From: an uncultured Candidatus Saccharibacteria bacterium
GTDB taxonomy: Bacteria; Patescibacteriota; Minisyncoccia; Phycocordibacterales; JACOZG01
Assembly: GCA_965230925.1 (NCBI GenBank)
Contig: OZ246403.1
Span: 3,367 to 67,366, forward strand
Reading direction: 5' to 3'
DNA: 64,000 nucleotides
Shown here: positions 1 to 59,992 of the stretch, one piece after another
Numbering within the stretch: position 1 is the stretch's first letter
How the letters are laid out: the number at the start of each line of letters is the position of its first letter
The notes under the pieces: generated by a model
The model's input: only the letters and a program-made list of their open reading frames with translations
What the model was told of the DNA's origin: nothing
Databases searched by the model: none
Made by a program: the position numbers and the translations under genes

Positions 1-98
1 GCGCCGAGTGCTCACTCCTTGCGTTTGTTGGTGGAAGATCCGGGTTTTGAAATCTTTACTTTTACCTTCGGCTAACGTTTAATAGGCGAGTTTGGTAC

Positions 99-181
99 GG
101 GCGCGTGGCGGAACTGGTATACGCGTACGCTTCAGAAGCGTATGGCCTCTGGCCTTGAGAGTTCAAGTCTCTCCGCGCCCA
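99..181 (+). tRNA. tRNA-Leu (anticodon CAG), type II tRNA with long variable arm; CCA not encoded
   Basis: Cloverleaf read directly from the sequence. The acceptor stem GGGCGCG (99-105) pairs with CGCGCCC (174-180), followed by discriminator A. The anticodon arm is TACGC / TTCAGAA / GCGTA, with anticodon CAG flanked by U33 and A37. A long variable hairpin GGCC-TCT-GGCC is present. The T-arm is GAGAG / TTCAAGT / CTCTC. Confidence 0.85.
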
Positions 182-228
182 CTTTTTTCTCGGTTTTCTG
201 TGGATAAAGCCAATTTTTTCTGATCTAT

Positions 229-240
229 AAGTGATATAAT
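229..240 (+). promoter_or_regulatory. Extended -10 promoter element (TGaTATAAT) 7 nt upstream of the GTG start of the giant fibre gene; possible leaderless or very short leader transcript
   Basis: TG at 232-233 and TATAAT at 235-240. No Shine-Dalgarno sequence lies between the element and the GTG at 248. Confidence 0.3.
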
Positions 241-247
241 TTTCTAC

Positions 248-3200
248 GTGAGAAAATCACGCCTTTTTCTGTATCTCGTTATCTTTTCTTTTATTTTTTC
301 TAGTATTTTCCCGACCGCTTTGGCCCAAGGCGTACCTACGGTTATCAGCTATCAAGGTCGTCTCGCTGATTCAAGTGGCAACCTTCTCGGTGGTTCCGGT
401 ACTACTTACTATTTCAAGTTTTCGATTTGGGATAATGCCACCGTTGGTTCTGGCTCCCAGCTTTACCCCAGTAGTTCACCAAGCTCGGTTTCTGCCACGG
501 TGCGGCAAGGTGTTTTTACTACGAGCATTGATGTTTCCGGATACAATTTTAATCGAGAAGATGCGGTTTATCTCCAAGTTGAAGCTTCGTCAGATAATTC
601 CACTTTCCAAACCTTAAGCCCACGCCAGCGTGTCACGGCCTCGGCTTTCGCTGAGCTCGCTGGCGCTGTTTCTGGTACCGGTTCTTCATCCTTTGGTACC
701 ACCACACCCATTACCAATTCTCAAGTGACCGTGGAGGCTACAACCACGACGGCTATTCCGCTCGCGCTTCGTGGCGCCTCTGGCCAAACAGCCAATCTTT
801 TTCAAATTCAAAACGCTTCTGCCTCCAATCTCTTTTATGTTAATTCAAGTGGCGCGGTATTTGCTTCTTCTACTTTGCAAGTTGCAGCAACCACTACAAT
901 TTACAGTGACTTGGTTCTTTCTGGGACGACTAAGTTTAATGGCAATACTTACACCTGGCCGAGTTCAATTGGTGCTGGTAATTTTCTTCAAACTGATGCA
1001 AGTGGTAATTTAACCTGGGCCTCGACTGGTGCTTCAGCTGGTGGTTGGACGGATGGGGGAACCACGGTAAGCCCGACGGCGTCTACAGACTTAATTTCAT
1101 TTACTCAGGGTTCTAGTACTATGTTTTCTGTTTTAGAGAACGCTTATTTTGGACGGACCGCTACAAGTACTTTTGATTCTGCTGGAAACTTGAACCTAGC
1201 TTCGACGGGAGAATATTATATTGGTGGAACGAATGTCCTTGATGCTACCACCCTCGGTTCCTCTGTTCTTGCCTCTTCCTTAACTTCTGTTGGCACTCTT
1301 TCTTCTTTAGCTGTTTCCGGTCTCTCCACCCTAACTGGCGGAATTTTCACCAACAACGCAACTTCAACTATCACCAATCTAACCACCGTCAACGCCACCT
1401 CTACCAATGCCACAACAACAAGACTTGCGATTACTGGTCTTGCTACTCCAGCGGGAACTTTTTTGGCTGTTAATCCAAATGGTCAGGTTATTGCCACAAC
1501 TACGCCGAGTGGTTCCGGCTCTGTTTCATCTGTATCCAACGCCAACGGTACTCTCACTATCTCGCCAACTACCGGTGCCGTGGTTGCTTCCCTCAATCTC
1601 GGCAACGCCAACACTTGGACGGCCCTCCAGTCTTTCTCCAGTGCCTCCTCCTCTCTCTTCTCCAACACTGGCACGGCATACTTTGGAGGAACGGCCACCT
1701 CCACATTCAACTCCGCTGGCGCTCTAACCCTCGCTTCAGCTCTCGCTGTAACCTCAGGTGGTACAGGTGCTACAAGTTTAGACAACCTGATTACTCTCGG
1801 CACTCACACCACTGGTAACTATCTTGCCACTCTTACCAATGCTGGCGGTCTTACCGTCGCTAACTCTGGATCAGAAACGGCTGGTGTCACTATTGCGATC
1901 GACACCGCTAATCCCAACACCTGGACCGGCCTCCAACAATTCACCGCCGCTTCCACCACCAGACTTTCGGTTTATGGGCCAAGTTATTTTGGTGGAACGG
2001 CGACGAGTACTTTTGACACCGCTGGTAATCTCAACCTTGCTTCTGGTGCCGCCTACTCAATTAATGGCACTAGCGTCTTAAACGCCAATACTCTTGGCAG
2101 TGGTATTACCGCTTCTTCCCTTACCAGCCTTGGTACACTTTCCAGTCTCTCCGCCTCCGGCCTCTCCACCCTAACCGGCGGAATTCTCGCGAACAACAGC
2201 ACTTCCACCATCACTAACCTCACAATGGTGAACAGCACCAGTACCAATGCCACTACTACCAACCTAGCAATCTCTGGTCTCGCTACTGCCGCCGGCACCT
2301 TCCTCGCCGTTAACCCCAATGGTCAAGTGATTGCGACCACCACTCCCACTTCTGGCATTATCACGATTGAAGAAAACAACAGCACGGTCACCTCAAGTGC
2401 CACCGTCATCGACTTCCTCGGTGCCGACTTTACGGTCACCGGTGCTTCTGGTGAAGGTGATGTCGCCATTGATTACGCCAACTCTGGTATTACCAGAGTT
2501 GGTCAGAATGAAACTGTCACTGGTAGCTGGACTTTATCTGGTCTTACCACCATGGCCCGAGCCTCCTCCTCTCTCTTCTCCAACACTGGCACGGCATACT
2601 TTGGAGGAACGGCGACTAGCACCTTCGACTCCGCTGGTATTCTCACCCTCATCAACAGTGGTCTCCATGTCTTCGACACCAATGCCAGCCACGATCTGAT
2701 CATCACTCCCGGTTCCGACTTAACCGCTGACCGCATTCTGACCATTACGACCGGTGACTCGGCTCGGACACTCACCTTAACCGGTGACACCTCTCTCACT
2801 GGCACCAACAGTGGCGACGTCACCCTCGCTGGTACGCCTGACTACATCACTATCTCTGGCCAAGTGATCACCAGAGGCACCATCGATATCGGCGATGACA
2901 CCAACTTAGCCGCCACCTATCCACTCATTCTCACCGGTGACACTCTTTCTTCTGCTCTAGCTACCACCTCAAGCAATACTTGGGCGGGGACACAAACTTT
3001 CAATGACATCGTGGTTACCGATGCTACCACCACCAGCTTCACCGTGGGCACCGATTACCTCACTGATATCACTGGTGGTGGCCTTACTCTCTCGGCTAAT
3101 GCTCTCACTGTCGATGATGTTACTCCTACCATGCTCCAAAGTGCTGACTTCGGGGATTTCACTTGCAATGGGACTAGCTGCGCTTTGGACTCTGACTCCA

Positions 3201-6200
3201 TTACTCTCGCCACCGACACCACCGGTAACTATGTTGCTACCCTCTCTTCTTCTGGTTCCATCACTGTCGCTAACTCAGGTTCAGAAAATGCTGCTGTTAC
3301 TGCTAATCTCAATATGGGCAACGCCAACACCTGGACGGCCCTTCAGTCCTTCTCCAATGCTTCCTCTTCTCTCTTCTCCAACACGGGTACGGCATACTTT
3401 GGTGGAACGGCTACCTCCAGCTTCTCTTCCACTGGAGCTCTAACCCTCGCTTCAGCCCTCGGCATCGCGAGTGGTGGTACCAACAACACTTCGTTCTCAA
3501 ATAACTCACTTCTTTTTTATAACGGCACTTCCATTGTTTCTACCTCGACGAGTCCGCTCTATGTTGGAGCAATTGTGGCCACTTCAACAACCGCGACAAC
3601 CACAATTTCTACTGGCGGTCTTGCCGTGGCGACCAACAAGTTAGTGGTACAACAAACTTCCGGCAACGTTGGTATTGGTACAGCCTCGCCCACAACGGGT
3701 CTTGATGTCGATGTGGCGAGCGACTTTTCGGGTGACGTGACCGTTTCTGGCGGCAGCACTCTCACCATTTCTTCTACCGGAGCGATTAATCAAACTGGTT
3801 CTGGTCAAGTGACTTTTGCGGGCAATGTGGATGCGACTAACGGCCTTGATGTGACCAATGCCAATTTTACCGTTGGTGGTAATAAACTCACCGTTGCTCC
3901 GGCCACAGGAAATACTGCGGTTGCGGGAACCATCGCCGTGACCGGTGCCGCAGCTGCTTCTTCCACTCTCCAAGTTACTGGAGCCACGCGACTTTATTCC
4001 ACTCTTACCACCGATGGCGCGCTTACGGCTTCCGCGGCTGGTACTGGTTTGAGTGTCACCAATAACGCCTCAGTCGGCGGTACTCTCGCGGTTACAGGCG
4101 CTGCCACTCTCTCAAATAATCTTGCGGTTACTGGCACATTAAGCGCCGCCGCCACCACGCTTTCTGGTAATTTGGCCATGGGCAGCAATCGCATTACCGG
4201 TCTGGCTAATCCTTCTTCCGACAATGATGCGGCCAATAAAACGTATGTTGACTCTATTGCGCAAGGTCTCTCTCTTAAGGACTCGGTGCGGGTGGGGACT
4301 ACGGCTAATATTACGCTCTCGGGTGAGCAGACGATTGACGGTGTGTCAGTGGTGGCGGGTAATCGGGTTTTGGTGAAGAATCAGAGCACCGCTTCGCAAA
4401 ACGGTATTTATACCGCGGCTTCTGGTGCTTGGTCGCGCTCTACCGATGCCGATGAGAGCAGTGAGGTCACGGCAGGTATGTTCACCTTCATTACTGAGGG
4501 TTCAACCAACGCCAATTCCGGTTGGGTGCTTACCACCACGGGAACAATTACTCTCGGTTCTACCTCTCTTTCCTTTACCCAGTTCTCTGGCGCCGGAAGT
4601 ATTATTGCTGGTACTGGTATGACGAAGAGCGGCAACACCCTTGATGTGGCGGGTACTACCGATCGGATTACAGCTAATGCTGACTCGATTGATATTGCTT
4701 CTACCTATGTGGGTCAAGCTTCTATCACGACCACTGGTGCGCTTAGTTCTGGTTCCATTGGTTCGTCTTTCGGTGCGATTGATATTGGGGCCGATGCGCT
4801 TACGGCCGGAGCGATTTCTGGTACCAATGTTTCAGCCTCTGGAAACTTGGCGATTACTGGCACTAGTGCCTTCACGGGTAATGTGACAATGTCTGGAACC
4901 TTGGCTGTGGCTACGACCACTCTTTCTGGAGACATTGTGATGAGTGGCAAGAAAATTACCGGCCTTGCTGATCCAAGCTCAGCTCAAGAGGCCGCCACCA
5001 AGGCTTATGTGGATTCCGTGGCCCAAGGTCTTACGGTTAAGGAAGCCGCTCGAGGCGCTTCCACCGCCAACCTCACTCTCTCGGGAGAGCAAACAGTAGA
5101 CGGCGTAGCTCTCGTGGCGGGTGACCGTATTTTGGTCAAGAATCAAAGTACTGGATCACAAAACGGTATTTATGTTGTTGCTTCTGGTGCTTGGTCACGC
5201 TCAAGTGATGCGAATGAAAACGGTGAGATCGCTTCGGGAATGTACGTCTTCGTCTCGAGCGGCACCACTCAAGCCAATACTGGTTGGTCGCTTACGACCA
5301 CGGGTTCAATTACGATTGACTCCACCTCGCTTGCCTTCACTCAATTCTCTGGTTCTACCGACATTACGGCGGGTGCTGGTCTGACGAAAACGGGTACAAC
5401 CATTGATATTGTTGGTACGGCCAACCGGATTACGGTTGCGGCCGATGCTATCGATATCGCCGCCACTTATGTTGGTCAGAGTTCAATTACCACAACCGGC
5501 GCACTCGTTTCTGGTTCCATCGCCTCCGGTTTCGGCAATATTAATATCGGCGCTTCAACTTTGGCGGCCGGGGAATCCACCTTCGCGACCACCACCTCTT
5601 TTGGTGATGTGGCTATTGGTCGCACGGCTACCACCACGATTAAGGGTAACTCTGCCACCTCCACCTTTAGCGGGGGAATTAGTTTAGCGGCCGGTAATTT
5701 AAATCTCGCAACCGGTGGCAGTTATCTCATCAATAATATCAATATTTTAAACGCTACAACTCTCGGCTCATCAGTGGTTTCTTCTTCTCTAACTGGCGTA
5801 GGGACACTTGCCTCTGGTGCTATCTCGGCCGGCTTCGGCGCTATTGATATCGGTGCCGATACTCTAGCCGCTGGTGCAACCACCCTCACCACTCTATCTG
5901 CCTCCGGCCTCTCCACTCTAACCGGAGGAATTCTCGCCAACAATGCGACAAGTACCATTACTAATCTAACGATGGTGAATGCAACAACAACCTCCGCCAC
6001 CACCACCAACTTCGCCATCTCTGGCCTTGCTACGGCTGCCGGCACTCTCCTTGCTGTTGATCCAAATGGTCGCGTTGTTGCCACCTCCACTCCTCAAGGT
6101 ACTGTTACCTCCGTCTCCAACTCCAACGGCACTCTCACCATCAGTCCCACCACTGGAGCAGTGGTTGCTTCGCTGAACTTAGGTAATGCTAATACTTGGA

Positions 6201-9200
6201 CGGCGCTGCAAACCTTCTCCTCTGGTCTCCTTTCTACCTCAAGTTCTACGATTACCAGTTTGACGATGGTAAACAGTACGAGCACCAGTGCCACCACCAC
6301 CAATCTCGCCATCTCTGGCCTTGCTACTGCGGCCGGCACCTTCCTCGCGGTTAACCCCAATGGCCAGGTGATTGCGACGACCACTCCCACTTCCGGTATC
6401 ATCACGATCGAAGAAAACAACAGCACCGTTACATCAAGCGCTACCGTCATCGACTTCCTCGGTGCTGACTTCACCGTTACCGGTGCTTCTGGTGAAGGAG
6501 ACATTGCCATTGATTATGCCAACTCCGGTATTACGCGAGTCGGTCAGAATGAAACTGTGACCGGTGCTTGGACTTTCTCTGGCCTTTCCTCTTTCGCTCG
6601 AGCCTCCTCCACCCTGTTCTCCAACACTGGCACAGCATATTTCGGTGGGACGGCCACCTCCACATTCGATTCATCTGGCGTTCTCACTCTAGTTAACTCC
6701 GGCCTCCACCTCTTCGATACCAACAGTTCCCACGATCTCATCATCACCCCTGGCTCCGACTTAACCGCTGACCGGATTCTCACCATCACCACTGGTGACT
6801 CGGCCCGCACTCTTACCTTAACCGGCGACACCTCACTCACTGGCACCAACACTGGTGATGTCACTCTTGCTGGTACTCCTGATTACATCACTATCTCTGG
6901 CCAAGTGATCACTAGAAACACCATCGACATTGGCGATGACACCAACCTTGCTGCCACCTATCCTCTCATCTTAACTGGCGATACTCTGTCTTCCGCTCTT
7001 GCCACCACCTCAAGCAATACCTGGGCTGGTACTCAAACCTTCAACGATATCGTGGTTACCGATGCCACCACCACCAGCTTAACTGTCGGTACTGACTATC
7101 TGACCGATATCACGGGCGGAGGTCTTACTCTTTCTGGTAATGCTCTAACCGTTGACGATGTTACTCCCACCATGCTCCAAAGTGCTGACTTTGGCGATTT
7201 CACTTGCAATGGCACCACTTGTAGTTTAGACAATGATACGGTAGCGGAAGCCGAGCTTGATCTCTCGGCTGTTACCCTCAACGACTTCACCAATGATGCT
7301 GGGTTTGTCACCACCAGTGGCGCCAATACTTGGACCAGTCTACAACAATTTGCCCGGGCTTCATCCACCATGCTTTCCGTTTATGGCCCCGCCTATTTCG
7401 GTGCGACGGCGACAAGTAGTTTCGACACGGCGGGCAATCTCAATCTTGCGAGTGGAGCGGCGTATTCTATTGCTGGAGCAAGCGTTTTGAACGCGACGAC
7501 ACTTGGTTCTAATGTTGTAGCATCTTCACTCACTTCTGTCGGTGCTCTCAATGGCGGCTCCATTACTTCTGGTTTCGGAGCAATTGATATTGGAACAGAC
7601 GGATTTACTGGTGGTAATTTAACCTTATCGGCCACCGGCACCGCCATTTCTCTGGGGGTCGGTAGCACCACCCCTTGGGGTCGCTTCTCGGTAGAACTGG
7701 ATACTTATAACCCAGCGATGGTGGTGGCCAATCAAGGGTCATCATCACCTGCTTTTTACATTGGTGGTGTAAATCAGAACGGTAGGATTGGTATTGGAAC
7801 CAAAACACCGAATGACATGCTAGAAGTGAGTGGTAATATTGCTCTAACTGATGATGGCACAGCTAAAACCATTGGGATTTATCAGGGTTCTTTTGGTACT
7901 GATTTAACCGTTAGGGCAAGTGATAGTGGTGATATTACTGCGGGACATTTAAACTTAACTGCCGGTTCAGCTGGTGGTGGCACCGGCGGTAATGTAAACA
8001 TCACCTCTGGTAATGGGTTTGCTGGTTCTGACGGTAGTATCAACTTAAGTGCTCCTACCACCGGTGGAGCAGTAAACATTGTTGGTCAGATTATGAATAT
8101 TGGTTCGGCGGGAGTTAAGATTACCGCTGATGGTGACGGGGCCCTCACGCTTCTTGGTCTTGGTGACGGAAGTGATGAAAACCTAGTAATCAACTTCGAT
8201 GATACTGCGAACGAGATAGATATCACCTCAAGTACTGGGGTCACTCGCGTAGATTACAACTCCTTAATTATTGAATCGGGAGCACTACAAGTTGACACTG
8301 CCGCCACTGGTGTAAACATTGATACTGACGGCGACGGCATGCTCATTCTTCTTGGTACTTCCACCGGCGCTGATGAAGACCTTCGCATTAACCTCGACGA
8401 TACAGCAAACGTGATCGAGTTTACTTCCACCACCGGTGCGACAGAAGCTCGATTTAGCTCTATTGGTTTGTTGTCTACAGCCTCATCTACCATTGGTGCC
8501 GGTGGAGTGACAACAGGTCTTACTGTTAGCGGTACAGCCACGACTACTCTCGATGTGGTGGTGCTTGGTCAAGACATTCAACTTGGTTCCGCTGGTGTTA
8601 AGATGACTGATGACGGCGATGGAGCCATTACTTTCCTCGGTCTTGGTAATGGTAATGACGAGAGTCTTACCCTTAACCTCGATGACACTTCTAATCAAGC
8701 CGTTTGGACCACGGGCACCAGCATTAGTCTCTGGGATCTCCAGAGTATGGGTCTCAATGCTCTTGAGCTTTCGGTTGGTACCACTTCACCTTGGGGTGAT
8801 CTCTCGGTTGAGATGGACACCGACAGCCCATCATTTGTGGTGGCAAACCAAGGTTCTACCACCCCCGCCTTCTTCATTGGTGGCGTAAACGCTAACGGGA
8901 AAATTGGTATTGGTACCGCAAGCCCTAGCGCAATTCTTGATATCACCGGGGATGTTGTTCAGACTTTCACGGGAACTACGGGAGATGCTCATACCATCAC
9001 GGCTTCTTCTCTGACCACAGGTTCAGCTCTGGTGCTTACTGGGCCTTCGGCAACTGATGAGGGTGTAGACGATGCACTTCTTAAGCTCGTGGGTAATGTG
9101 GAAAACGTTGCTAGCGGTGGGGGGCTCTTTAGTAGCACGGCAACCCTAGAAACCAATAGCGGTACGGTAGGTAATAACGTTTATGTGTCCACGGTAAATT

Positions 9201-10894
9201 CCAATGAGGCCGTGACGGGTACGGGTATTTACAACACCCTCCAGTCTACTGTTGTCAATGGGGTGGTTGGCCAGACAAATTATGGTATTTATAATACGGT
9301 ATCAAAAACTGGAAACGATACTGCTGGTGCGACAGAAACCTACGGTATAGCCAGTTTGGCTTCAAATACTGGTTCTAGTGCGGGTACTAAAAATACTTAT
9401 GGCGGTTACTTCTCGGCTACTGGTAGCACTGGTGGCTCAGCGGTTACTTATGGTCTCTATTCTACCGCATCGGGAGGTGATTTAAATTATGCTGGATACT
9501 TCGATGCGGGTGACGTTGCTGTTGTTACAGGTAATTTATATGTGAGTGCTGGTAATTCCATTGTGACATCTGGAAAATTTGGCGTGGGGAGTAGTACCCC
9601 GTACGCCACGATCTCAGTCACCAATACTGGTTCTGGACCTTCTCTCGTGGTTGAAGACTCAACATCACCTGACACCACACCTTTTATCATTACCGCCGCT
9701 GGTGATGTGGGTATTGGCACCACTACTCCTTGGCGTAAGTTCTCAGTTGACGGCACAGTGAGCTTTCTTAACTTGACCAGCAATACTGGTGCTGTTACCG
9801 CTTCTATTTGTCTTGATTCTAATAATCAGGTAACTCGTAACACGCAAAACGAGACCTGTGTTGCTTCTTCACAACGATTTAAACACAATATTGAGTCGCT
9901 CCCAGAAGGATCAGGTTTGGCGGACCTCATGGACTTGAGACCGGTAACCTTTGAGTATAATGATCCTAATTTAGCTGGTATCCGGTATGGTTTTATTGCT
10001 GAAGAAGTTGAGCAAGTGGATGACCTTTTGGTTGGTTACGATAATGACGGTTTGGTCCACAGCGTGCGGCATTTAAGCATGATTCCATTAATGACCCAGG
10101 CCATTCAGGAGTTGAAGGGTCAGGTAGATATTCTTCAGTTGCAAATTGATGGCGGTGGAGTGGCTGGCTTAGCGCTTAATGCTCCACTCCAAACCAGCCA
10201 GCTAACCGTTGGCGAAATTGTGGCGCTTGATGGGCAAAAAATTACTTTCAATAACGACGTGGTGTTGCTCGGGCGACCGTACTTTAACTCTGATACTGGT
10301 GGCTTCGCCGAGATTGCGGAGGGTGATAAGGAGGTCGATGTGACTTTTGACGAAGAATATTCTGAAGATCCTGTAGTAAATGTAACACTCGCGGCGGATG
10401 AGAATGATGAAGAAGAAATTTTTGACGCTGATATTCGTTACTTGGTGACCGAGAAGGGAACTACTGGCTTTACGATTAAGCTCAACAAAAATGCGCCGGA
10501 GAAATTGATGTTTAACTGGATTGCTCTCGCGGTGAAGGACGCGAAAACTTTCCACTCGGAAATGATTGAGGGGCTCACCTTGCCAAGTGATGACAACGAC
10601 AACAATGGTAGTGGTGGTGGTAATAATGAAGAACAGAATGAAAATAATAATGAGGAAAGCCAAAATGATCAGAGTGAGCCCGAGCCGCCTGTTGATGAGA
10701 CAAATGATGAGCCTGTTGATGAGCCGAGCGATGAACCCGAACCCCCGACAGATGAACCAGAACCCCCTGCTGACGAGCCCGCAGATGATGAAGAAGTGAG
10801 CGAGTCGGAACCACCAGCCGAAGAAGTGGAAAATTCTGACGATTCAGGTGATAATGGCGGATCAGAAGAACCAGCTGAACCAGAAAATCCATGA
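248..10894 (+). CDS. Giant secreted Thr/Ser/Gly-rich fibre/adhesin protein (3548 aa). It has an N-terminal signal peptide and many internally repeated beta-rich modules. Phage tail-fibre-like repeats (ITGLA(N/D)PSS..DAA(N/T)K.YVDS) are present. A C-terminal peptidase S74 / endosialidase-type intramolecular chaperone auto-processing domain (about 9815..10150) is followed by an acidic D/E/P-rich tail (about 10570..10894).
   Basis: One continuous 10.6-kb ORF. The signal peptide is MRKSRLFLYLVIFSFIFSSIFPTALAQG. The motif SSQRFKHNIESL...FIAEEVEQVDDLLV...MIPLMTQAIQEL matches the Ser-Lys dyad region of tail-spike chaperone domains. The tail is rich in DEPEPP. The protein is paralogous to 54692..59992. 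Confidence 0.85.
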   Translation: MRKSRLFLYLVIFSFIFSSIFPTALAQGVPTVISYQGRLADSSGNLLGGSGTTYYFKFSIWDNATVGSGSQLYPSSSPSSVSATVRQGVFTTSIDVSGYNFNREDAVYLQVEASSDNSTFQTLSPRQRVTASAFAELAGAVSGTGSSSFGTTTPITNSQVTVEATTTTAIPLALRGASGQTANLFQIQNASASNLFYVNSSGAVFASSTLQVAATTTIYSDLVLSGTTKFNGNTYTWPSSIGAGNFLQTDASGNLTWASTGASAGGWTDGGTTVSPTASTDLISFTQGSSTMFSVLENAYFGRTATSTFDSAGNLNLASTGEYYIGGTNVLDATTLGSSVLASSLTSVGTLSSLAVSGLSTLTGGIFTNNATSTITNLTTVNATSTNATTTRLAITGLATPAGTFLAVNPNGQVIATTTPSGSGSVSSVSNANGTLTISPTTGAVVASLNLGNANTWTALQSFSSASSSLFSNTGTAYFGGTATSTFNSAGALTLASALAVTSGGTGATSLDNLITLGTHTTGNYLATLTNAGGLTVANSGSETAGVTIAIDTANPNTWTGLQQFTAASTTRLSVYGPSYFGGTATSTFDTAGNLNLASGAAYSINGTSVLNANTLGSGITASSLTSLGTLSSLSASGLSTLTGGILANNSTSTITNLTMVNSTSTNATTTNLAISGLATAAGTFLAVNPNGQVIATTTPTSGIITIEENNSTVTSSATVIDFLGADFTVTGASGEGDVAIDYANSGITRVGQNETVTGSWTLSGLTTMARASSSLFSNTGTAYFGGTATSTFDSAGILTLINSGLHVFDTNASHDLIITPGSDLTADRILTITTGDSARTLTLTGDTSLTGTNSGDVTLAGTPDYITISGQVITRGTIDIGDDTNLAATYPLILTGDTLSSALATTSSNTWAGTQTFNDIVVTDATTTSFTVGTDYLTDITGGGLTLSANALTVDDVTPTMLQSADFGDFTCNGTSCALDSDSITLATDTTGNYVATLSSSGSITVANSGSENAAVTANLNMGNANTWTALQSFSNASSSLFSNTGTAYFGGTATSSFSSTGALTLASALGIASGGTNNTSFSNNSLLFYNGTSIVSTSTSPLYVGAIVATSTTATTTISTGGLAVATNKLVVQQTSGNVGIGTASPTTGLDVDVASDFSGDVTVSGGSTLTISSTGAINQTGSGQVTFAGNVDATNGLDVTNANFTVGGNKLTVAPATGNTAVAGTIAVTGAAAASSTLQVTGATRLYSTLTTDGALTASAAGTGLSVTNNASVGGTLAVTGAATLSNNLAVTGTLSAAATTLSGNLAMGSNRITGLANPSSDNDAANKTYVDSIAQGLSLKDSVRVGTTANITLSGEQTIDGVSVVAGNRVLVKNQSTASQNGIYTAASGAWSRSTDADESSEVTAGMFTFITEGSTNANSGWVLTTTGTITLGSTSLSFTQFSGAGSIIAGTGMTKSGNTLDVAGTTDRITANADSIDIASTYVGQASITTTGALSSGSIGSSFGAIDIGADALTAGAISGTNVSASGNLAITGTSAFTGNVTMSGTLAVATTTLSGDIVMSGKKITGLADPSSAQEAATKAYVDSVAQGLTVKEAARGASTANLTLSGEQTVDGVALVAGDRILVKNQSTGSQNGIYVVASGAWSRSSDANENGEIASGMYVFVSSGTTQANTGWSLTTTGSITIDSTSLAFTQFSGSTDITAGAGLTKTGTTIDIVGTANRITVAADAIDIAATYVGQSSITTTGALVSGSIASGFGNINIGASTLAAGESTFATTTSFGDVAIGRTATTTIKGNSATSTFSGGISLAAGNLNLATGGSYLINNINILNATTLGSSVVSSSLTGVGTLASGAISAGFGAIDIGADTLAAGATTLTTLSASGLSTLTGGILANNATSTITNLTMVNATTTSATTTNFAISGLATAAGTLLAVDPNGRVVATSTPQGTVTSVSNSNGTLTISPTTGAVVASLNLGNANTWTALQTFSSGLLSTSSSTITSLTMVNSTSTSATTTNLAISGLATAAGTFLAVNPNGQVIATTTPTSGIITIEENNSTVTSSATVIDFLGADFTVTGASGEGDIAIDYANSGITRVGQNETVTGAWTFSGLSSFARASSTLFSNTGTAYFGGTATSTFDSSGVLTLVNSGLHLFDTNSSHDLIITPGSDLTADRILTITTGDSARTLTLTGDTSLTGTNTGDVTLAGTPDYITISGQVITRNTIDIGDDTNLAATYPLILTGDTLSSALATTSSNTWAGTQTFNDIVVTDATTTSLTVGTDYLTDITGGGLTLSGNALTVDDVTPTMLQSADFGDFTCNGTTCSLDNDTVAEAELDLSAVTLNDFTNDAGFVTTSGANTWTSLQQFARASSTMLSVYGPAYFGATATSSFDTAGNLNLASGAAYSIAGASVLNATTLGSNVVASSLTSVGALNGGSITSGFGAIDIGTDGFTGGNLTLSATGTAISLGVGSTTPWGRFSVELDTYNPAMVVANQGSSSPAFYIGGVNQNGRIGIGTKTPNDMLEVSGNIALTDDGTAKTIGIYQGSFGTDLTVRASDSGDITAGHLNLTAGSAGGGTGGNVNITSGNGFAGSDGSINLSAPTTGGAVNIVGQIMNIGSAGVKITADGDGALTLLGLGDGSDENLVINFDDTANEIDITSSTGVTRVDYNSLIIESGALQVDTAATGVNIDTDGDGMLILLGTSTGADEDLRINLDDTANVIEFTSTTGATEARFSSIGLLSTASSTIGAGGVTTGLTVSGTATTTLDVVVLGQDIQLGSAGVKMTDDGDGAITFLGLGNGNDESLTLNLDDTSNQAVWTTGTSISLWDLQSMGLNALELSVGTTSPWGDLSVEMDTDSPSFVVANQGSTTPAFFIGGVNANGKIGIGTASPSAILDITGDVVQTFTGTTGDAHTITASSLTTGSALVLTGPSATDEGVDDALLKLVGNVENVASGGGLFSSTATLETNSGTVGNNVYVSTVNSNEAVTGTGIYNTLQSTVVNGVVGQTNYGIYNTVSKTGNDTAGATETYGIASLASNTGSSAGTKNTYGGYFSATGSTGGSAVTYGLYSTASGGDLNYAGYFDAGDVAVVTGNLYVSAGNSIVTSGKFGVGSSTPYATISVTNTGSGPSLVVEDSTSPDTTPFIITAAGDVGIGTTTPWRKFSVDGTVSFLNLTSNTGAVTASICLDSNNQVTRNTQNETCVASSQRFKHNIESLPEGSGLADLMDLRPVTFEYNDPNLAGIRYGFIAEEVEQVDDLLVGYDNDGLVHSVRHLSMIPLMTQAIQELKGQVDILQLQIDGGGVAGLALNAPLQTSQLTVGEIVALDGQKITFNNDVVLLGRPYFNSDTGGFAEIAEGDKEVDVTFDEEYSEDPVVNVTLAADENDEEEIFDADIRYLVTEKGTTGFTIKLNKNAPEKLMFNWIALAVKDAKTFHSEMIEGLTLPSDDNDNNGSGGGNNEEQNENNNEESQNDQSEPEPPVDETNDEPVDEPSDEPEPPTDEPEPPADEPADDEEVSESEPPAEEVENSDDSGDNGGSEEPAEPENP
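2200..3200 (+). repeat. About 1-kb intragenic direct repeat, copy 1 (near-identical copy at about 6245..7245)
   Basis: The DNA and protein blocks NPNGQVIATTTPTSGIITIEENNST...FGDFTCNGT(S/T)C are almost identical in both copies. Confidence 0.8.
4110..5625 (+). repeat. Tandem duplication of an about 760-bp (about 253-aa) module, two copies (about 4110..4869 and 4870..5625)
   Basis: Each copy contains ITGLA(N/D)PSS..DAA(N/T)K(T/A)YVDS(I/V)AQGL...VKNQST.SQNGIY..ASGAWSRS.DA...FTQFSG. The two copies are about 75-80% identical. Confidence 0.75.
6245..7245 (+). repeat. About 1-kb intragenic direct repeat, copy 2 (pair of 2200..3200)
   Basis: Same block, about 90% or more nucleotide identity judged by eye, located 4.04 kb downstream of copy 1. 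Confidence 0.8.
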
Positions 10895-20772: not shown

Positions 20773-20780
20773 CCTTGATA

Positions 20781-54670: not shown

Positions 54671-54691
54671 TTAGGTCACAACTGAATATTG

Positions 54692-57600
54692 ATGAAGAGG
54701 TTTTTAGCCAAGAATATTTTTCTGTGTTTGGCAATCTGCGTCTTCGCTCTCGTGCTTACTCTTTTTCCGAGCAGGCAACTTTTTGCTGCTCCAAATTTAC
54801 AAATTAATTATCAAGGCAAGCTTACAGACTCAAGCGATGTGGCTGTTGCTGACGGTAATTACAGCATCGTTTTCCGCCTTTATACCGTAGCGAGCGGCGG
54901 ATCAAATATTTGGAGTGAGACTCAAACTGTGGCCGTAACCAACGGTCTTTTCAGTGTAATGCTTGGCACAACCACCAGTCTTGCGGCAATCGACTTCAAT
55001 CAAACCCTTTATCTTGGGGTAAATGTGGCCGCCGATGGCGAAATGACTCCACGAAAAGTTTTTGGCACGGTGCCAGCCGCTTTCGCTTCCACTTTTGTCA
55101 GCGGCTCAACCTCCACCCCATCATCTTTTGGCACCACCACGCCCATTGCTAATACTCAAGTAACCATTGAGGCCACCTCAACGACCGCGATTCCGTTAAA
55201 TATTAGAGCAAACGCTAGTCAATCAGCGAACTTGTTCCAAATTCAAAACGCCTCAGCATCCAATCTTCTTTATGTTAATTCTTCTGGTGGTTTGTTCGCC
55301 TCTTCCACCCTTCAAGTTACTGGCAATAGCACCTTTTATTCCTCAATCACTGGAACAAGTTTGACCCTTAGCGCCACCGGCACCGCCGCCTCCCTTGGTG
55401 TGGGTACTACCACTCCTTGGGGGCGCTTCTCAGTGGAGCTAGATACTTATAATCCCGCTTTTGTGGTTTCTAACCAAGGTTCTTCAACGCCAACGCTTTA
55501 CATCGGTGGTGTAAACCAGAATGGCAATATCGGCATTGGCACCACGACACCAAGCGAGAAGCTCGCCCTCTATGATGGTAATTTCCTCCAATCACCAGGT
55601 AATCCGCGTCTTGTTGGAACAATAACGAGCAGCAATACCAACATGAACGATGTGGCTGTGCAGGGAAAATATGCCTACGCAATTAGCGGCACAAGCCGGC
55701 TCTATGTTTACGATGTGTCTAATTCTGCGTCCCCGGCGCTTGTTGGTTCTTCCGCCGCTTTGGCTGGAGATGCTGTGGTTGTGGCTGGGCGTTATGCGTA
55801 TACAGTCGATGCATCGGGGGGCACTTTTAGAATCTTTGATGTTTATAATCCAAGTAACCCCGTTCTTGTTTCTTCTCTTTCTACTGGTGCTTTTTCTTCA
55901 CCGCGGGATCTTGTGGTTTCTGGTTCCTATGCTTATGTTGGGGCTTCTGGTGGACTTATGATTATCAACGTAGGGAACCCCGGAAAACCAGTTACTGTTG
56001 CTACGGCCGCCGCCGGTGCCGACATTGATAATGTGAGAATCCAGGGTAATTATGTTTACCTTTACGATGATGGTTCTGGGGGAACAAACATTATTGATGT
56101 TTCTAACCCAACTAATCCATCGTACATTACTCAGATCGGCACAGCTTCAACCCACGATGTTTCAGGGCGTTATTTTTATGTCGCGGACGATGTTAGCCAG
56201 CAATTCCAGATTTATGATATCTCTAATCCCGCTTCTGCTTCTTTGGTTGGTTCGATAAGTAGTGCCGTAAGTTCAACAGCGCACAACGGAGAACTCATTG
56301 TGGCTGGTCGTTACGTTTACCTTGCTGACCCTGGTAATGACACGATAAAAGTTTTTGACGTGGCTTCCTCCACGGCCCCGGTTCTTGTTGGCTCAACCAG
56401 CGTCACTGGAACTGATTCCCTATCTCTCGCGGTGGCGGGGCGCCATCTCTATGTTCTCAACGACAACTCCGCTGCCAATACCAGCCTTTCCATTTTTGAT
56501 ATTTCCGGTGTTGAAGCCGCTTCGCTTACGGCGCACTCTCTTGAAGCGGGTCGTCTGCAAGTTCGAGAATCGGCCGCCATTCAAGGTTCACTTTCTGTTA
56601 GCACTTCGCTACAAGTTGGAACCGGCGGCATCTTCAGTGCCGGACCAATTGCTGTTAGTGTGGCCTCTTCTACCGAGGGTAGCCCCGTTTCGGCCTCCTT
56701 CCAGGGTCGAGTTTCAATAGGCACTTCAACCCCGTCTTCAATTTTAACTATTTGGGGGCAAAGTACTGGCTCGACCCCTAATCTCATTATTGCCAATAGC
56801 GCTTCCACCACTCTGTTCACGGTTTTAGACAGTGGTAATGTCGGCATCGGCACTACCTCTCCTTACGCTAAGCTGTCGGTGTTAGGAGAAACAGTGTCGA
56901 CTTATTTTACCGCCACCTCTACTACGGCAACATCTACCTTCGCTGGCGGTTTAAGTGTGGGTACTAATTCTAGTGTTGCCAATTTTACTTTGTCTAATGC
57001 AATTGACAATAGTTTTCCTGTCGCTTTTATCTACCGCAGTGATTCTGGGCAAGATGTTGGCATTGACGAGGAACTTGGGGCGATTTATTTCGATAGTAAT
57101 GATGGTGGAGTAAGTTCCGTTGACGCTTCTGTCGTTCTAAAAAGTTTTGCTTCTGGTGGCCACACCACAACCAGAAAAGGTGGGTATTTCACTATTTCAA
57201 CCAAGCCATACGGAGCGTCAAATAATGCTTCTGCTGCTACCGAGAGGTTTAGAATTACTGATACTGGCAGTGTTGGTATCGGCACTACCTCTCCTTACGC
57301 TAAACTTTCAGTGGTTGGTCCGGTCGTTGCCGAATATTTTCATGCTACTTCTACTACCGCCACCTCCACTTTCAGTGGGGCTATCGCCTTGCCTGCCACC
57401 ACGGCTGCTGGCGCCGGAGTCGTTACTGTTGCTGGGACAAGGTTTTTGCATAATTACGGTACGGGTAGTGTGTTTTTGGGCTCCGAGGCCGGGAATCTTA
57501 CTAGTAGCGGTTTTGGGCAAAACGTTGGTGTTGGTTACCAGTCCCTAACCCAAGTAACTACAGGATATCAAAACACTGCCGTTGGCTATGATTCCATGTC

Positions 57601-59992
57601 TGGAATTTCTACCCATCAGGGGAATACGGCAATTGGTACCGGATCAATGAGTGGTTATACCGGGTCTGGTAGTGTTGCCGTTGGCTTGTCGGCCCTCTCC
57701 TCTGCTTCTGGTAACAACAACATAGCGATTGGTTCTACTTCGCTTAATTCTAATTCGGGGACTAATAATATTGGTCTCGGTACTAGTATTTTTACTACCA
57801 ACACAGGCTCCTACAATATTGGTTTGGGAGAAAACGTGTTGGACACTAATTCCGGCTCTAGAAACATTGCCATCGATGGCCTTGTTACTGGTTTTGGAAA
57901 CAGTGGTTCTTATAACCTTGCTCTTGGTGAGGGCTCTCTTAGCACTTCTGCTACACAGTCAGGTTCCTTCAATATCGCCTTGGGGGCAAACGCACTAAAC
58001 GCAAACACAAGTGGCGCGAGCTCTACGGCCATTGGTTACTACGCCCTTGGGGCCAACACCACGGGTGCCTCCAGTACGGCTGTGGGTATTAATGCCGGTC
58101 GAATCAACACCACCGGTAGCAAACTTACCTTTCTCGGCGCAAACTCGGGCTATACCGGTTCTTCTGACGGTCTCACCAATGCCACGGCTATTGGCTTCAA
58201 CGCGCAAGTTACGCGGAGTAATAGTGTAATTCTTGGTGGCACCGGCTCCGATCAGGTTAATGTTGGTATCGGCACCACTTCTCCTTACGCTCGACTCTCG
58301 GTGGTTGGGGAAACTGTTTCTAGTTATTTTACAGCCACATCAACGAGCAACAATTCTTCCTTTGCTGGTAATGTCGGCGTCGGTACCACCTCACCTTATG
58401 CCAATTTGTCAGTTTCTACTTCTGATACTACCGATGATATCGCGGTTATTTACGGTTCCTCCCTTACCACTGGCTCTGCTCTTGTGCTCAACGGTCCCTC
58501 CGATGCCACGGCGGGGGTTACCGATTCTTTGTTTAAGGTGAGCGGGGATGTTGGCACCACTACCAGCACTGGACTTATAAGTTCCAACGCCATATTCGAC
58601 AACAACTCCAACTATTCTACTTCAATTAACATTTTTGCTTCTACTACGAACACCATGTCCGGTGCAACCAACGTCGGGTCGGGCGCCTACGGTATTTATA
58701 ATTCCATAAATTCTACGGCCACAGACTACCCAAGTCTCGCCGTTATTAGACAGTACGGCATATTTAGTTCTAGTACCAAGTATGTTGATGATGATTCTGT
58801 TAATTTTAATAATTACGCTGTTTATGGTACAGCCACTAACCTAAACGAAAGTGGTGGCAATCCTTATGCTTATGGCGGTTACTTTACCGCTCTCAACGAT
58901 ACGGGCGGCACTGAATCTCGGGCATATGGTGTTTATGCTGATGGCTCTGGTGGGGACACAAATTACGGTCTTTATGCCGTGGCTTCCGGTGCCGGTAGCA
59001 ATAATTATGCTATCTATGCTACTGCCTCCGACGCTACCAACAATTATGCTGGCTATTTCAATGCCGGAAATGTTTATGTAAATAGTGGCAACCTTGGAGT
59101 CGGCACTAGTTCACCGTGGCGGAAGTTGTCGGTAGACGGGACGGTTGGCTTTGCTAATTTAACCACCAATGTGGGTGCAGCAGCCGCTTCTCTTTGCCTG
59201 TCTTCTACTAATGAGGTTACCCGAAACACAGAGAACGAAACTTGCCTTACTTCTTCAGAGCGCTATAAACACAACATTGAGTCTTTGGCGGCCGGGTCCG
59301 CTCTAGAGACCTTGCTTCAGTTGCGTCCTGTTACTTTTGAATACAACAATGCTCCCGGAACAAGATATGGTCTCATTGCCGAAGAGGTTGAAGATGTTGA
59401 TGACTTGCTTGTCAGTTACGACGATGAGGGTTTGGCTCATGGTGTTCGCTATGTGACCATGGTCCCTCTCCTTACTCAAGCAATCCAAGAACTTTCAGCT
59501 CGTTTGGATGAGAATATTGCTGGGGGTCAGATTAATCCAGTAATTATGAGTAGTAACTTTGACCCAGACAACCTGGTTGCCCTACGTCAGGCTGCTGGGA
59601 ATTGGAGCCTTGATGAGAATGGTTTGTTGTTTGTGAAAGAGGTTCATGCGGAGAAGTTGTGTCTTGGTGACGTGTGTGTAGATGAGAGTGATTTGCGTTC
59701 GCTCTTGCGCAAGAATGATTTACTCGATGAAGATAACGAGAATCATGGTGGTAACAACGAAGAGGAGGAACCTGAACAGAATGAAGATATTGATGATGAA
59801 GAAAATGATGAGGAGGAACCAACAGAAAACGAAGAAGAAAATCAAGATGAACCAGAAGTGATCGAAGAACCAGAGGTAACAGAAGAACCGGCCGATGATC
59901 CGCCGGCAGAAGATGAGACTCCGAGCGAACCAGATCCGGAGCCTGAACCAGAACCTGAGCCCGAGTTGCCGGAAGGAGACGGTGGGGTATAA
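54692..59992 (+). CDS. Giant secreted fibre/adhesin protein 2 (about 1766 aa). It shares an N-terminal domain with 248..10894. It contains LVIVD-type beta-propeller repeats (about 55600..56520) and phage tail-fibre-like Gly/Asn-rich repeats (about 57420..58230). A C-terminal peptidase S74 intramolecular chaperone domain (about 59200..59500) is followed by an acidic E/D/P-rich tail.
   Basis: Signal peptide present. NYQGKLTDSS...FGTTTPIANTQVTIEATSTTAIPL...ANLFQIQNASASNLLYVNSSG is shared with giant 1. SSERYKHNIESL...LIAEEVEDVDDLLV...MVPLLTQAIQEL forms the chaperone domain. PEPEPEPEPE tail. Confidence 0.85.
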   Translation: MKRFLAKNIFLCLAICVFALVLTLFPSRQLFAAPNLQINYQGKLTDSSDVAVADGNYSIVFRLYTVASGGSNIWSETQTVAVTNGLFSVMLGTTTSLAAIDFNQTLYLGVNVAADGEMTPRKVFGTVPAAFASTFVSGSTSTPSSFGTTTPIANTQVTIEATSTTAIPLNIRANASQSANLFQIQNASASNLLYVNSSGGLFASSTLQVTGNSTFYSSITGTSLTLSATGTAASLGVGTTTPWGRFSVELDTYNPAFVVSNQGSSTPTLYIGGVNQNGNIGIGTTTPSEKLALYDGNFLQSPGNPRLVGTITSSNTNMNDVAVQGKYAYAISGTSRLYVYDVSNSASPALVGSSAALAGDAVVVAGRYAYTVDASGGTFRIFDVYNPSNPVLVSSLSTGAFSSPRDLVVSGSYAYVGASGGLMIINVGNPGKPVTVATAAAGADIDNVRIQGNYVYLYDDGSGGTNIIDVSNPTNPSYITQIGTASTHDVSGRYFYVADDVSQQFQIYDISNPASASLVGSISSAVSSTAHNGELIVAGRYVYLADPGNDTIKVFDVASSTAPVLVGSTSVTGTDSLSLAVAGRHLYVLNDNSAANTSLSIFDISGVEAASLTAHSLEAGRLQVRESAAIQGSLSVSTSLQVGTGGIFSAGPIAVSVASSTEGSPVSASFQGRVSIGTSTPSSILTIWGQSTGSTPNLIIANSASTTLFTVLDSGNVGIGTTSPYAKLSVLGETVSTYFTATSTTATSTFAGGLSVGTNSSVANFTLSNAIDNSFPVAFIYRSDSGQDVGIDEELGAIYFDSNDGGVSSVDASVVLKSFASGGHTTTRKGGYFTISTKPYGASNNASAATERFRITDTGSVGIGTTSPYAKLSVVGPVVAEYFHATSTTATSTFSGAIALPATTAAGAGVVTVAGTRFLHNYGTGSVFLGSEAGNLTSSGFGQNVGVGYQSLTQVTTGYQNTAVGYDSMSGISTHQGNTAIGTGSMSGYTGSGSVAVGLSALSSASGNNNIAIGSTSLNSNSGTNNIGLGTSIFTTNTGSYNIGLGENVLDTNSGSRNIAIDGLVTGFGNSGSYNLALGEGSLSTSATQSGSFNIALGANALNANTSGASSTAIGYYALGANTTGASSTAVGINAGRINTTGSKLTFLGANSGYTGSSDGLTNATAIGFNAQVTRSNSVILGGTGSDQVNVGIGTTSPYARLSVVGETVSSYFTATSTSNNSSFAGNVGVGTTSPYANLSVSTSDTTDDIAVIYGSSLTTGSALVLNGPSDATAGVTDSLFKVSGDVGTTTSTGLISSNAIFDNNSNYSTSINIFASTTNTMSGATNVGSGAYGIYNSINSTATDYPSLAVIRQYGIFSSSTKYVDDDSVNFNNYAVYGTATNLNESGGNPYAYGGYFTALNDTGGTESRAYGVYADGSGGDTNYGLYAVASGAGSNNYAIYATASDATNNYAGYFNAGNVYVNSGNLGVGTSSPWRKLSVDGTVGFANLTTNVGAAAASLCLSSTNEVTRNTENETCLTSSERYKHNIESLAAGSALETLLQLRPVTFEYNNAPGTRYGLIAEEVEDVDDLLVSYDDEGLAHGVRYVTMVPLLTQAIQELSARLDENIAGGQINPVIMSSNFDPDNLVALRQAAGNWSLDENGLLFVKEVHAEKLCLGDVCVDESDLRSLLRKNDLLDEDNENHGGNNEEEEPEQNEDIDDEENDEEEPTENEEENQDEPEVIEEPEVTEEPADDPPAEDETPSEPDPEPEPEPEPELPEGDGGV

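Follow-up and report, generated by a model that had tools for sequence, protein, structure and literature searches.

The window (the whole 64-kb stretch of DNA analyzed here) carries two giant open reading frames, ORF1 and its paralogue ORF2, both of which the first-pass annotation had located correctly; the ATG at 54692 taken as the start of ORF2 is also its start in the public gene call (Table 1). Ser and Thr together make up 28% of ORF1 and 24% of ORF2. The two proteins are related at both ends: aa 1 to 222 align at 40% identity (E = 2e-33), bearing out the earlier claim that they have N-terminal domains in common, and ORF1 2835 to 3327 aligns with ORF2 1186 to 1632 at 42% identity (E = 9e-87). 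A match to MoeA_C in the Pfam scan of ORF1 was dismissed as a chance match to a repeat. The gene setting is cellular, with Mur ligases, SecA, PepF, glycosyltransferases, and NeuB among the Pfam assignments of the 40 window ORFs, and ORF1 and ORF2 flank a large surface-glycan island with possible O-glycosylation. Their nearest relatives are found in Parcubacteria (Patescibacteria), the best genome match being 47% identical, in Vogelbacteria (species-representative genomes, GTDB). The window's own genome is not one of these GTDB representatives; its contig measures 716 kb, in keeping with an affiliation to the candidate phyla radiation (CPR).

Table 1. Features of ORF1, ORF2, and a neighboring gene, in window coordinates
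Feature	Position (nt)	Strand	Remarks
ORF1, giant, predicted secreted fiber protein	248..10894	+	3548 aa; GTG start
ORF1 predicted Sec signal peptide	248..325	+	MRKSR, hydrophobic core, ALA/QG; by inspection
N-terminal β-sandwich domain, common to ORF1 and ORF2	341..637	+	aa ~32-130; AF2
Second conserved N-terminal module	683..892	+	SSFGTTTPI...NLFQIQN...ASSTLQV; ~80% ORF1/ORF2 identity
ORF1 internal repeat, copy A	2225..3172	+	aa 660-975; 90-98% identical to copy B
Phage tail-fiber/virion-protein-like module, copy 1	4166..4867	+	RITGLANPSS...
Phage tail-fiber/virion-protein-like module, copy 2	4928..5617	+	KITGLADPSSAQEAATKAYVDS...
ORF1 internal repeat, copy B	6266..7207	+	aa 2007-2320
Cys3188...Cys3204 loop of ORF1, directly before the predicted cleavage site	9809..9859	+	invariant in 11/11 aligned modules
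ORF1 Peptidase_S74 intramolecular chaperone	9866..10147	+	aa 3207-3300; Ser3207 at 9866-9868, Lys3212 at 9881-9883
ORF1 post-chaperone domain 3, putative distant H-type lectin relative	10250..10567	+	aa ~3335-3440
ORF1 acidic Pro-rich tail	10586..10891	+	102 aa; D/E 40%, P 17%, no K/R
ORF2, paralogous fiber protein	54692..59992	+	1766 aa counted from ATG
ORF2 LVIVD repeat (β-propeller) region	55586..56563	+	approximate boundaries; E = 6e-28, 5 stretches
ORF2 Peptidase_S74 domain	59252..59509	+	Ser1522 at 59252-59254, Lys1527 at 59267-59269 (numbered from nt 54689)
ORF2 Cys hairpin motif after chaperone	59660..59677	+	KLCLGDVCV; recurrent in CPR homologues
ORF2 acidic Pro-rich tail	59726..59989	+	88 aa; D/E 51%, P 17%, no K/R
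Third, small fiber-like gene	60023..61117	+	34% identity to ORF2 aa 894-1208; lacks an S74 domain

On inspection of their sequences, both proteins appear to begin with a Sec signal peptide, whose core in ORF1 reaches a Kyte-Doolittle hydropathy maximum of 2.05 (19-residue window). The N-terminal β-sandwich that comes after it, about 100 aa long, was predicted with AF2 at a pLDDT of >90. This domain is near-universal in Parcubacteria, with 432 or more homologues there, and is present too in short proteins of 330 to 360 aa. Searching with a family profile showed that it also begins S74 proteins of Acidobacteriota and Verrucomicrobiota; a jackhmmer search seeded with the ORF1 domain alone had returned no match in the fetched loci, whereas the family profile did match. 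Further along, ORF1 contains two copies of an ITGLADPSS..QEAATKAYVDS module (aa ~1307 to 1540 and 1561 to 1790). PHROGs of phage tail-fiber and virion proteins match this module with E values of 1e-57 to 3e-84, and tblastn matched it to 369 phage records, in agreement with the tail-fiber-like modules recognized at the outset. A GIGTxxPxxxLxV loop motif occurs five times in ORF1 and six times in ORF2, and in the form GNVGIGTxxPxxKLxV it can be aligned to Bdellovibrio Bd2133 (PDB 8ond). The search for LVIVD repeats that the first-pass annotation had recommended located them in ORF2.

Toward the C terminus, a Peptidase_S74 domain (PF13884) was found in both proteins, as had been proposed, at 38.3 bits in ORF1 (aa 3207 to 3258; E = 1.7e-9) and 42.7 bits in ORF2 (aa 1522 to 1571; E = 6.9e-11), both above the Pfam cutoff of 22 bits. 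The catalytic Ser of ORF1 had been assigned to an S-x-x-R-x-K motif with a Lys five residues downstream and to nt 9869; motif and spacing hold, but nt 9869 belongs to Ser3208, and the residue that fits is Ser3207, encoded by nt 9866 to 9868. Both Ser and Lys are invariant in an alignment of 11 modules and are kept in 21/21 CPR and 76/76 non-CPR modules (97/97), including every examined module that has a long post-chaperone extension. An AF2 model of the ORF1 domain, computed as a monomer only, has a pLDDT of 85 to 97 over aa 3209 to 3299 and adopts the chaperone fold with a C-terminal helix, in line with the chaperone that had been anticipated for this end of the protein. The top Foldseek matches to it were the ICA domain of MyRF (7dc3; E = 7e-6, probability 1.0) and an endosialidase chaperone (3gw6; 0.99), with 3gud also among the matches. 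Given the predicted cleavage, the Cys3188...Cys3204 loop would become the C-terminal tip of the mature ORF1 fiber.

The S74 domain is not the extreme C terminus of either protein, as about 250 aa (ORF1) and about 160 aa (ORF2) lie beyond the chaperone helix. At least 80 aa follow S74 in 17 of 19 CPR proteins compared to 0 of 58 non-CPR proteins; on these counts the extension appears to be CPR specific, and it looks new, being undescribed in the literature searched. Both proteins end in an acidic, Pro-rich tail, which had been noticed previously. The earlier description did not include a folded domain of about 110 to 140 aa that lies between the ORF1 chaperone and its tail. This domain 3 gives a near full-length but subthreshold match to the H-type lectin profile (PF09458, Helix pomatia agglutinin type), scoring 18.5 bits where 24 are required (E = 0.0022) over aa 3363 to 3426, covering profile positions 2 to 66 of 67. 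The same profile matches 12 of 18 domain 3 family members (best E = 1.2e-5), all of them below the gathering threshold. We regard this as a distant resemblance only, and sugar binding by domain 3 as putative. H-type lectins bind sugars and are typically trimeric. AF2 modeling of the region, from a shallow alignment, had low confidence (pLDDT of 30 to 49), and a PDB sequence-profile search with it gave only chance matches to EST3. An exhaustive HMMER search found the cassette of domain 3 plus tail in at least 1657 protein clusters, overturning the rarity suggested by a single match in a word-indexed search. In ORF2, S74 is followed by a Cys hairpin and not by a lectin domain.

In most members of the family, the lectin-like domain follows a non-S74 domain that begins D-[LY]-A-E-x-Y and is absent from both ORF1 and ORF2. 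That domain weakly resembles Peptidase_G2 (PDB E = 0.33; Pfam best E = 7.5e-4, below threshold), aligning with the auto-chaperone of the phi29 gp12 pre-neck appendage (PF11962; PDB 3GQH) from its first, post-cleavage residue, an Asp. A Pfam scan of 10 full proteins carrying the cassette returned no Peptidase_G2 at E ≤ 1e-3, and the weak matches emerged only when sequence slices and a profile were used. The domain is possibly a G2-type chaperone, which we offer as a lead rather than a finding.

A comparable layout has been published for the mosaic adhesive trimer (MAT) fibers of Bdellovibrio bacteriovorus, which comprise a signal peptide, a conserved N-terminal β domain, a trimeric fiber, and a self-cleaving S74 domain (Caulton 2024, PMC10769870). 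Self-cleavage of MAT S74 was shown experimentally and is blocked by S782A (PMC10769870). The MAT S74 subgroup (e.g., Bd3182) is likewise encoded by the cell rather than by a phage. Like MAT proteins, ORF1 and ORF2 have a predicted signal peptide with a β-rich domain immediately after it (a likeness by description rather than by compared homology), a long mosaic shaft with GxGxxxPxxxL-type loops and similarity to phage fibers, an S74 chaperone/protease with a Ser...Lys motif near the C terminus, and several paralogues with swapped parts per genome. Unlike MAT proteins, they belong to Patescibacteria, a group absent from the tables of PMC10769870; ORF1 is about three times longer; and S74 stops short of the C terminus, with 160 to 250 residues beyond it that comprise a lectin-like domain or Cys hairpin and then the acidic tail. 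Because the MAT family is published and cellular proteins ending in S74 are very common (at least 508 loci in species-representative genomes), the initial claim that this architecture is not a described protein family was overstated.

Two further systems bear on the chaperone itself. With the chaperones of phage endosialidases, T5 pb1, and tailspikes (PF13884; PDB 3GW6 and 4UW8), the ORF1 and ORF2 modules have in common the HMM match, the S-x4-K dyad, a GxIAEEV motif, and, in the predicted fold of ORF1, a long C-terminal helix. In contrast to those phage proteins, ORF1 and ORF2 are cellular and predicted to be secreted, have a conserved Cys-Cys loop directly before the cleavage Ser, and continue well past the chaperone. 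The best structural match to the ORF1 chaperone, the ICA domain of MyRF/MrfA (PDB 7DC3), is internal, and its cleavage detaches the trimeric N-terminal portion from the part that anchors it at the C terminus; this release through the ICA is described in PMC3828593. MyRF differs in being a eukaryotic membrane-bound transcription factor with a transmembrane anchor C-terminal to the ICA.

We propose that ORF1 and ORF2 are exported by Sec to form surface fibers, probably trimeric, of a Parcubacteria-type bacterium, built on the MAT plan and equipped with a self-cleaving S74 domain and a lineage-specific cassette, a reading that we consider fairly likely. The conserved N-terminal β-sandwich would probably sit at the cell surface, with a long, mosaic, Ser/Thr-rich shaft beyond it that contains putatively phage-derived tail-fiber modules, GIGTxxPxxxLxV loops, and, in ORF2, the LVIVD propeller. 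The S74 chaperone could then nucleate folding of the trimer and cut itself off at Ser3207 (ORF1) or Ser1522 (ORF2). The pieces predicted to be excised are long compared to those of known S74 proteins, at 342 aa (37 kDa) for ORF1, close to the loss of about 40 kDa estimated at first, and 246 aa (27 kDa) for ORF2. They would bear the H-type-lectin-like domain and acidic Pro-rich tail in ORF1 and the Cys hairpin and acidic Pro-rich tail in ORF2, and the post-chaperone cassette would be a lineage-specific element recurring in Patescibacteria. A role for the fibers in attachment to host or partner cells is plausible, making ORF1 and ORF2 candidate adhesins. Host-attachment candidates published for Patescibacteria comprise type IV pili and unnamed adhesins. 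The proposal implies that Parcubacteria carry MAT-like, phage-derived fibers, a type of recognition device that until now has been studied in predators, and that well over a thousand clusters of giant surface proteins bear the conserved post-chaperone add-on; the precisely predictable cleavage site would offer a direct handle on fiber maturation.

The strong PHROG and phage tblastn matches of the central modules and S74 are what would be expected if ORF1 and ORF2 were tail fibers of a prophage, tailocin, or contractile injection system. We reject this origin as extremely improbable because the Pfam scan of 40 ORFs across 64 kb found no capsid, tail, baseplate, terminase, or sheath gene, in keeping with the cellular, nonprophage setting originally described. 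The apparent signal peptides on both proteins and the 3548-aa length of ORF1 also argue against it, as does the result of a search of IMG/VR viral contigs, in which no relative of the post-S74 domain was found. The proteins could alternatively be structural components of the surface, either fibrils associated with an S-layer or a glycosylated coat, rather than host-cell adhesins. The spread of the N-terminal domain across nearly all Parcubacteria and into proteins of only 330 to 360 aa is consistent with such a coat, as are the neighboring island for glycans and possibly O-glycosylation, and the Ser/Thr content of 24 to 28%. Recognition is instead suggested by the mosaic, rapidly shuffled tips, the modules of phage receptor-binding type, the LVIVD propeller, and the MAT precedent. 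The two roles are compatible with each other, and we think it unlikely that the proteins are structural in place of being adhesins.

The fate of the C-terminal piece admits other readings than release of the chaperone after folding. S74 might serve as an internal trimerization module that does not cleave, or the cut piece might stay attached, so that in ORF1 the lectin-like domain would form a distal sugar-binding tip, with the acidic tail as a flexible terminus. The chaperone is indeed followed by a conserved folded domain that resembles H-type lectins, and the strong conservation of this domain over 1657 clusters would be odd in a disposable piece. However, the Ser/Lys dyad is invariant in all modules examined, those with long extensions included, ORF2 lacks a lectin domain at this position, and in most family members the domain before the lectin-like one weakly resembles the self-cleaving G2 chaperone; we judge a noncleaving S74, or a cut piece that stays attached, improbable and favor the self-cleaving fiber.

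Cleavage could also serve more than disposal of the chaperone. We speculate, with low confidence, that the post-chaperone cassette acts as a transient C-terminal tether or a sorting module, which keeps the end exported last at the envelope during assembly of the three chains, until self-cleavage frees the tip as in MyRF. Extended to the lineage, a self-cleaving chaperone (S74 or G2-like), an H-lectin-like domain, and an acidic tail would together make up a Patescibacteria-wide maturation cassette that serves as a sorting device or as an envelope tether released by cleavage, and not as a disposable folding aid, a generalization that we likewise hold to be doubtful. If true, it would be a bacterial counterpart of MyRF release and would define how episymbionts assemble and deploy host-contact fibers. 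Against a tether, the predicted released fragments of ORF1 and ORF2 contain no transmembrane segment, LPXTG, or other known anchor (19-residue Kyte-Doolittle maximum of ~1.0), the G2 assignment is weak, and envelope binding is an assumption. In its favor, the top fold match of the ORF1 chaperone, the MyRF ICA, is itself an internal domain with an anchoring region behind it. Among the sampled proteins only those of CPR have the cassette, which is found downstream of two kinds of putative self-cleaving chaperone, and the tails are entirely free of Lys and Arg.

Both giant reading frames reported in the first-pass annotation, ORF1 and ORF2, are present in the window, the latter beginning at the start of the public gene call. 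They encode Ser/Thr-rich proteins (S+T content of 28% in ORF1 and 24% in ORF2) whose N-termini, judged by inspection only, look like signal peptides: the n-region is basic, and a hydrophobic core (Kyte-Doolittle maxima of 2.0 and 2.6, respectively) precedes an AxA-type cleavage site. Their proposed paralogy is confirmed by BLASTP at both ends: residues 1-222 share 40% identity (E = 2e-33), and ORF1 residues 2835-3327 share 42% identity with ORF2 residues 1186-1632 (E = 9e-87). The central regions are unlike each other, and ORF2 carries LVIVD repeats (Pfam, E = 6e-28). As noted previously, there are tail-fiber-like modules: the ITGLADPSS..QEAATKAYVDS module occurs twice in ORF1 and matches tail-fiber and virion PHROGs (E down to 3e-84), 369 phage records (identity up to 58%) and a solved capsid decoration protein (PDB 9nx3; E = 5e-9). 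A shaft motif, GNVGIGTxxPxxKLxV, is found five times in ORF1 and six times in ORF2 and can be aligned to Bd2133 in the PDB.

Window coordinates of the fiber genes and surrounding features
Feature	Position	Details
ORF1	248-10894	GTG start; 3,548 aa
Internal duplication of ORF1	2225-3172 and 6266-7207	~315 aa
ORF antisense to ORF1	10202-10663	minus strand; 153 aa
Proteins with Ig-like domains	11788-15532	three or four genes
VirD4/TraG-like coupling ATPase	20775-22430	
Surface-glycan island	22427-47093	~25 kb
ORF2	54689/54692-59992	public gene call: ATG 54692; 1,766 aa
ORF2-like gene	60023-61117	364 aa
Secreted protein	61143-63509	788 aa

Each fiber protein has a Peptidase_S74 match above the Pfam threshold, at aa 3207-3258 of ORF1 (E = 1.7e-9) and at aa 1522-1571 of ORF2 (E = 6.9e-11). 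An AlphaFold2 model of ORF1 aa 3130-3450 reached a pLDDT of 85-97 over aa 3209-3299 and shows a long terminal helix; its best Foldseek match in the PDB was the intramolecular chaperone domain of MyRF (7dc3; E = 7e-6, probability 1.0), with further matches to the endosialidase chaperone 3gw6 (probability 0.99) and to 3gud. The assignment to S74, which had been staked on finding an HMM or structural match, therefore stands. In an alignment of 11 modules, two from the window and nine from metagenomic relatives, the Ser, the Lys, a GxIAE motif and one Cys pair (C3188 and C3204), which flanks the loop directly before the cleavage Ser, are invariant. Among all S74 modules of 80 genome loci, the Ser/Lys pair is retained in every copy, both from the candidate phyla radiation (CPR; 21/21) and from elsewhere (76/76). 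Read directly, the ORF1 codons are TCT at 9866 (S3207), TCA at 9869 (S3208) and AAA at 9881 (K3212); because S3207 is the Ser that matches S-x-x-R-x-K and at which the Pfam model begins, the catalytic Ser is placed at nt 9866, one codon before the nt 9869 originally proposed.

While the observation of two giant S74 fibers was thus borne out, its interpretation holds only in part: the domains and the cellular setting stand, but the kind of protein, thought to be undescribed, is already known. Bdellovibrio encodes 21 mosaic adhesive trimer (MAT) fibers, which comprise a signal peptide, an invariant ~130-aa β-rich N-terminal domain presumed to sit on the outside of the predator, a trimeric mosaic shaft resembling phage fibers and a variable tip; 13 of them have a terminal S74 domain with an SDxxxK motif, and self-cleavage of Bd3182 at S782 is abolished by S782A (Caulton et al. 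2024, PMC10769870). The window fibers follow the same plan (putative signal peptide, predicted N-terminal β domain, phage-like shaft, S74), and one peptide pattern run against species-representative genomes recovered at least 508 confirmed loci for S74-ending cellular proteins in many phyla. However, the chaperone is the end of the polypeptide in known S74 proteins, whereas in the window fibers further residues follow, including the acidic low-complexity tails described earlier (102 aa with 40% D/E in ORF1 and 88 aa with 51% D/E in ORF2, each with 17% P and zero Lys/Arg).

As far as could be established, this post-chaperone cassette is undescribed, widespread and specific to Patescibacteria. 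Counting complete ORFs of the 80 genome loci only, the chaperone is followed by a median of 35 residues in 58 non-CPR proteins (at least 80 in 0/58) and of 199 in 19 CPR proteins (at least 80 in 17/19). Each CPR extension has one of three elements, (i) a small Cys hairpin, KxLCxxxxC[VIL][TD]xx[QE][LF] (KLCLGDVCVDESDL in ORF2), (ii) a TGDYYC...GxC motif or (iii) a folded domain, as in ORF1, and then a Pro/Glu/Ser/Thr-rich tail. An exhaustive HMMER search with ORF1 aa 3296-3450 returned 1,657 clusters at E ≤ 1e-3 and 936 at E ≤ 1e-10. Member proteins are as long as 5,555 aa, and the domain is always placed ~100 residues before their C-terminus. Tails of the best 150 members have a median of 97 aa and consist of 20% Pro and 15% D/E, with K/R practically absent. 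Members with names are labeled "Patescibacteria group," and no relatives were found in IMG/VR viral contigs. The ORF1 domain, for which the AlphaFold2 model was unreliable, may be a distant relative of H-type lectins: it matches PF09458 below threshold (positions 2-66 of 67, E = 0.0022), as do 12/18 family members (best E = 1.2e-5).

In 92/107 representatives (those with enough upstream sequence), the domain preceding the cassette is not S74; this conserved, ~180-aa domain starts D-[LY]-A-E-x-Y. Its sole PDB match was the phi29 gp12 auto-chaperone, whose first post-cleavage residue is where the alignment starts (E = 0.33), and its commonest Pfam signal was Peptidase_G2 (4/14 slices, best E = 7.5e-4), faintly suggesting a G2-like chaperone. 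If so, the cassette would habitually stand behind one or other type of self-cleaving chaperone. Giant proteins of two Peribacteria loci (L055 and L074) have such a domain (D-Y-A-E-W-F...GQVP..V...GD.LT.S...G.A.KA) 600-690 aa after the S74 match, and would therefore each carry two different putative self-cleaving chaperones in series.

We propose as the most likely sequence that both products are exported by Sec, that the C-terminal chaperone nucleates trimer folding and that self-cleavage follows before S3207 (ORF1) or S1522 (ORF2). This would leave a mature fiber of 314 kDa or 150 kDa per chain, respectively, ending in a disulfide-capable Cys loop and retained on the cell through its conserved N-terminal domains, and would set free an acidic fragment of 37 kDa or 27 kDa (pI about 4). 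The present data show the domain content, the dyad, the fold, the genomic context and the distribution; trimerization, cleavage, display and host binding are what we infer from the S74 and MAT literature. Alternatively, the cassette may serve as a tether that lasts only until cleavage frees it, as in MyRF, or the true fiber tip may be the lectin-like domain, with S74 not cleaving at all or the piece remaining bound. The fibers may also form a structural, glycosylated coat.

The two giant genes are separated by a surface-glycan island encoding about eight GT4/GT1 glycosyltransferases, an epimerase, PMT_2, GT2, a Wzx-like flippase, two FkbM methyltransferases, a 730-aa Wzy_C+TPR protein and a nonulosonic-acid pathway (NeuB, CMP-sugar cytidylyltransferase and HAD hydrolase). 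Its core (24-34 kb) has a GC content of 37-40%, compared to 45-52% elsewhere. Since PglL-type O-oligosaccharyltransferases carry a Wzy_C domain and the fibers are Ser/Thr-rich, these may be O-glycosylated. The 40 window ORFs scanned for context, including MurD, MurC, NUDIX, a DUF4015 glycosidase, a VirD4-like ATPase, SecA, oligopeptidase F, an ABC1 kinase and a CYTH protein, contained no phage structural gene, in agreement with the cellular setting first described; derivation from a prophage or tailocin is effectively ruled out.

The N-terminal domain is confidently modeled as a β-sandwich. Its profile matches the N-termini of S74-ending Acidobacteriota and Verrucomicrobiota proteins (E = 7e-9 and 2e-9) and, when broadened, a dozen further loci. 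Because its named relatives are all Parcubacteria/Paceibacterota and the closest S74 modules are from CPR lineages (in species-representative genomes, Vogelbacteria at 47% identity, then Taylor-, Nomura-, Zambryski- and Uhrbacteria and MAGs labeled Saccharibacteria), the host is a CPR bacterium, as had been guessed. The N-terminal module of the fibers also starts a family of short (330-360 aa) Parcubacteria proteins (P0112, P0177, P0150 and P0099) ending ...NENLWVCSGGSC...FEFDEGQ, which suggests that a single common base domain carries many different distal parts.

The duplicated segments of ORF1 lie 4,041 nt apart at 90-98% protein identity; the duplication looks recent and points to a shaft that is still being expanded by recombination, or possibly to misassembly of a gene rich in repeats. 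GC skew is negative over most of ORF1 (window 1-8000; -0.03 to -0.22) and positive nearly everywhere else in the window, probably reflecting codon usage of Thr/Ser/Ala-rich repeats and not replication. The ORF antisense to the lectin-like domain and acidic-tail region is most likely spurious. Adjoining ORF2 downstream, the 364-aa gene shares 34% identity with ORF2 aa 894-1208 (YadA-head-like NTAxG repeats and a GIGT loop), with an N-terminal hydrophobic segment, a Cys-rich end (CSNAPDTSGSCSCN) and no S74. The 788-aa secreted protein had no Pfam match and contains a metzincin-type zinc-metalloprotease motif, HEMGHSLGLYH. Downstream of ORF1, secreted or membrane proteins carry Big_6/Big_13 Ig-like domains; by eye only, one of 438 aa has two terminal dockerin-like repeats (DLNNDCRVNLVDFS... 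and LNGDNQINLVDFS...) and one of 571 aa starts with a cohesin-like segment. An essential type IV secretion system has been reported for Patescibacteria, in light of which the VirD4/TraG-like coupling ATPase is of interest.
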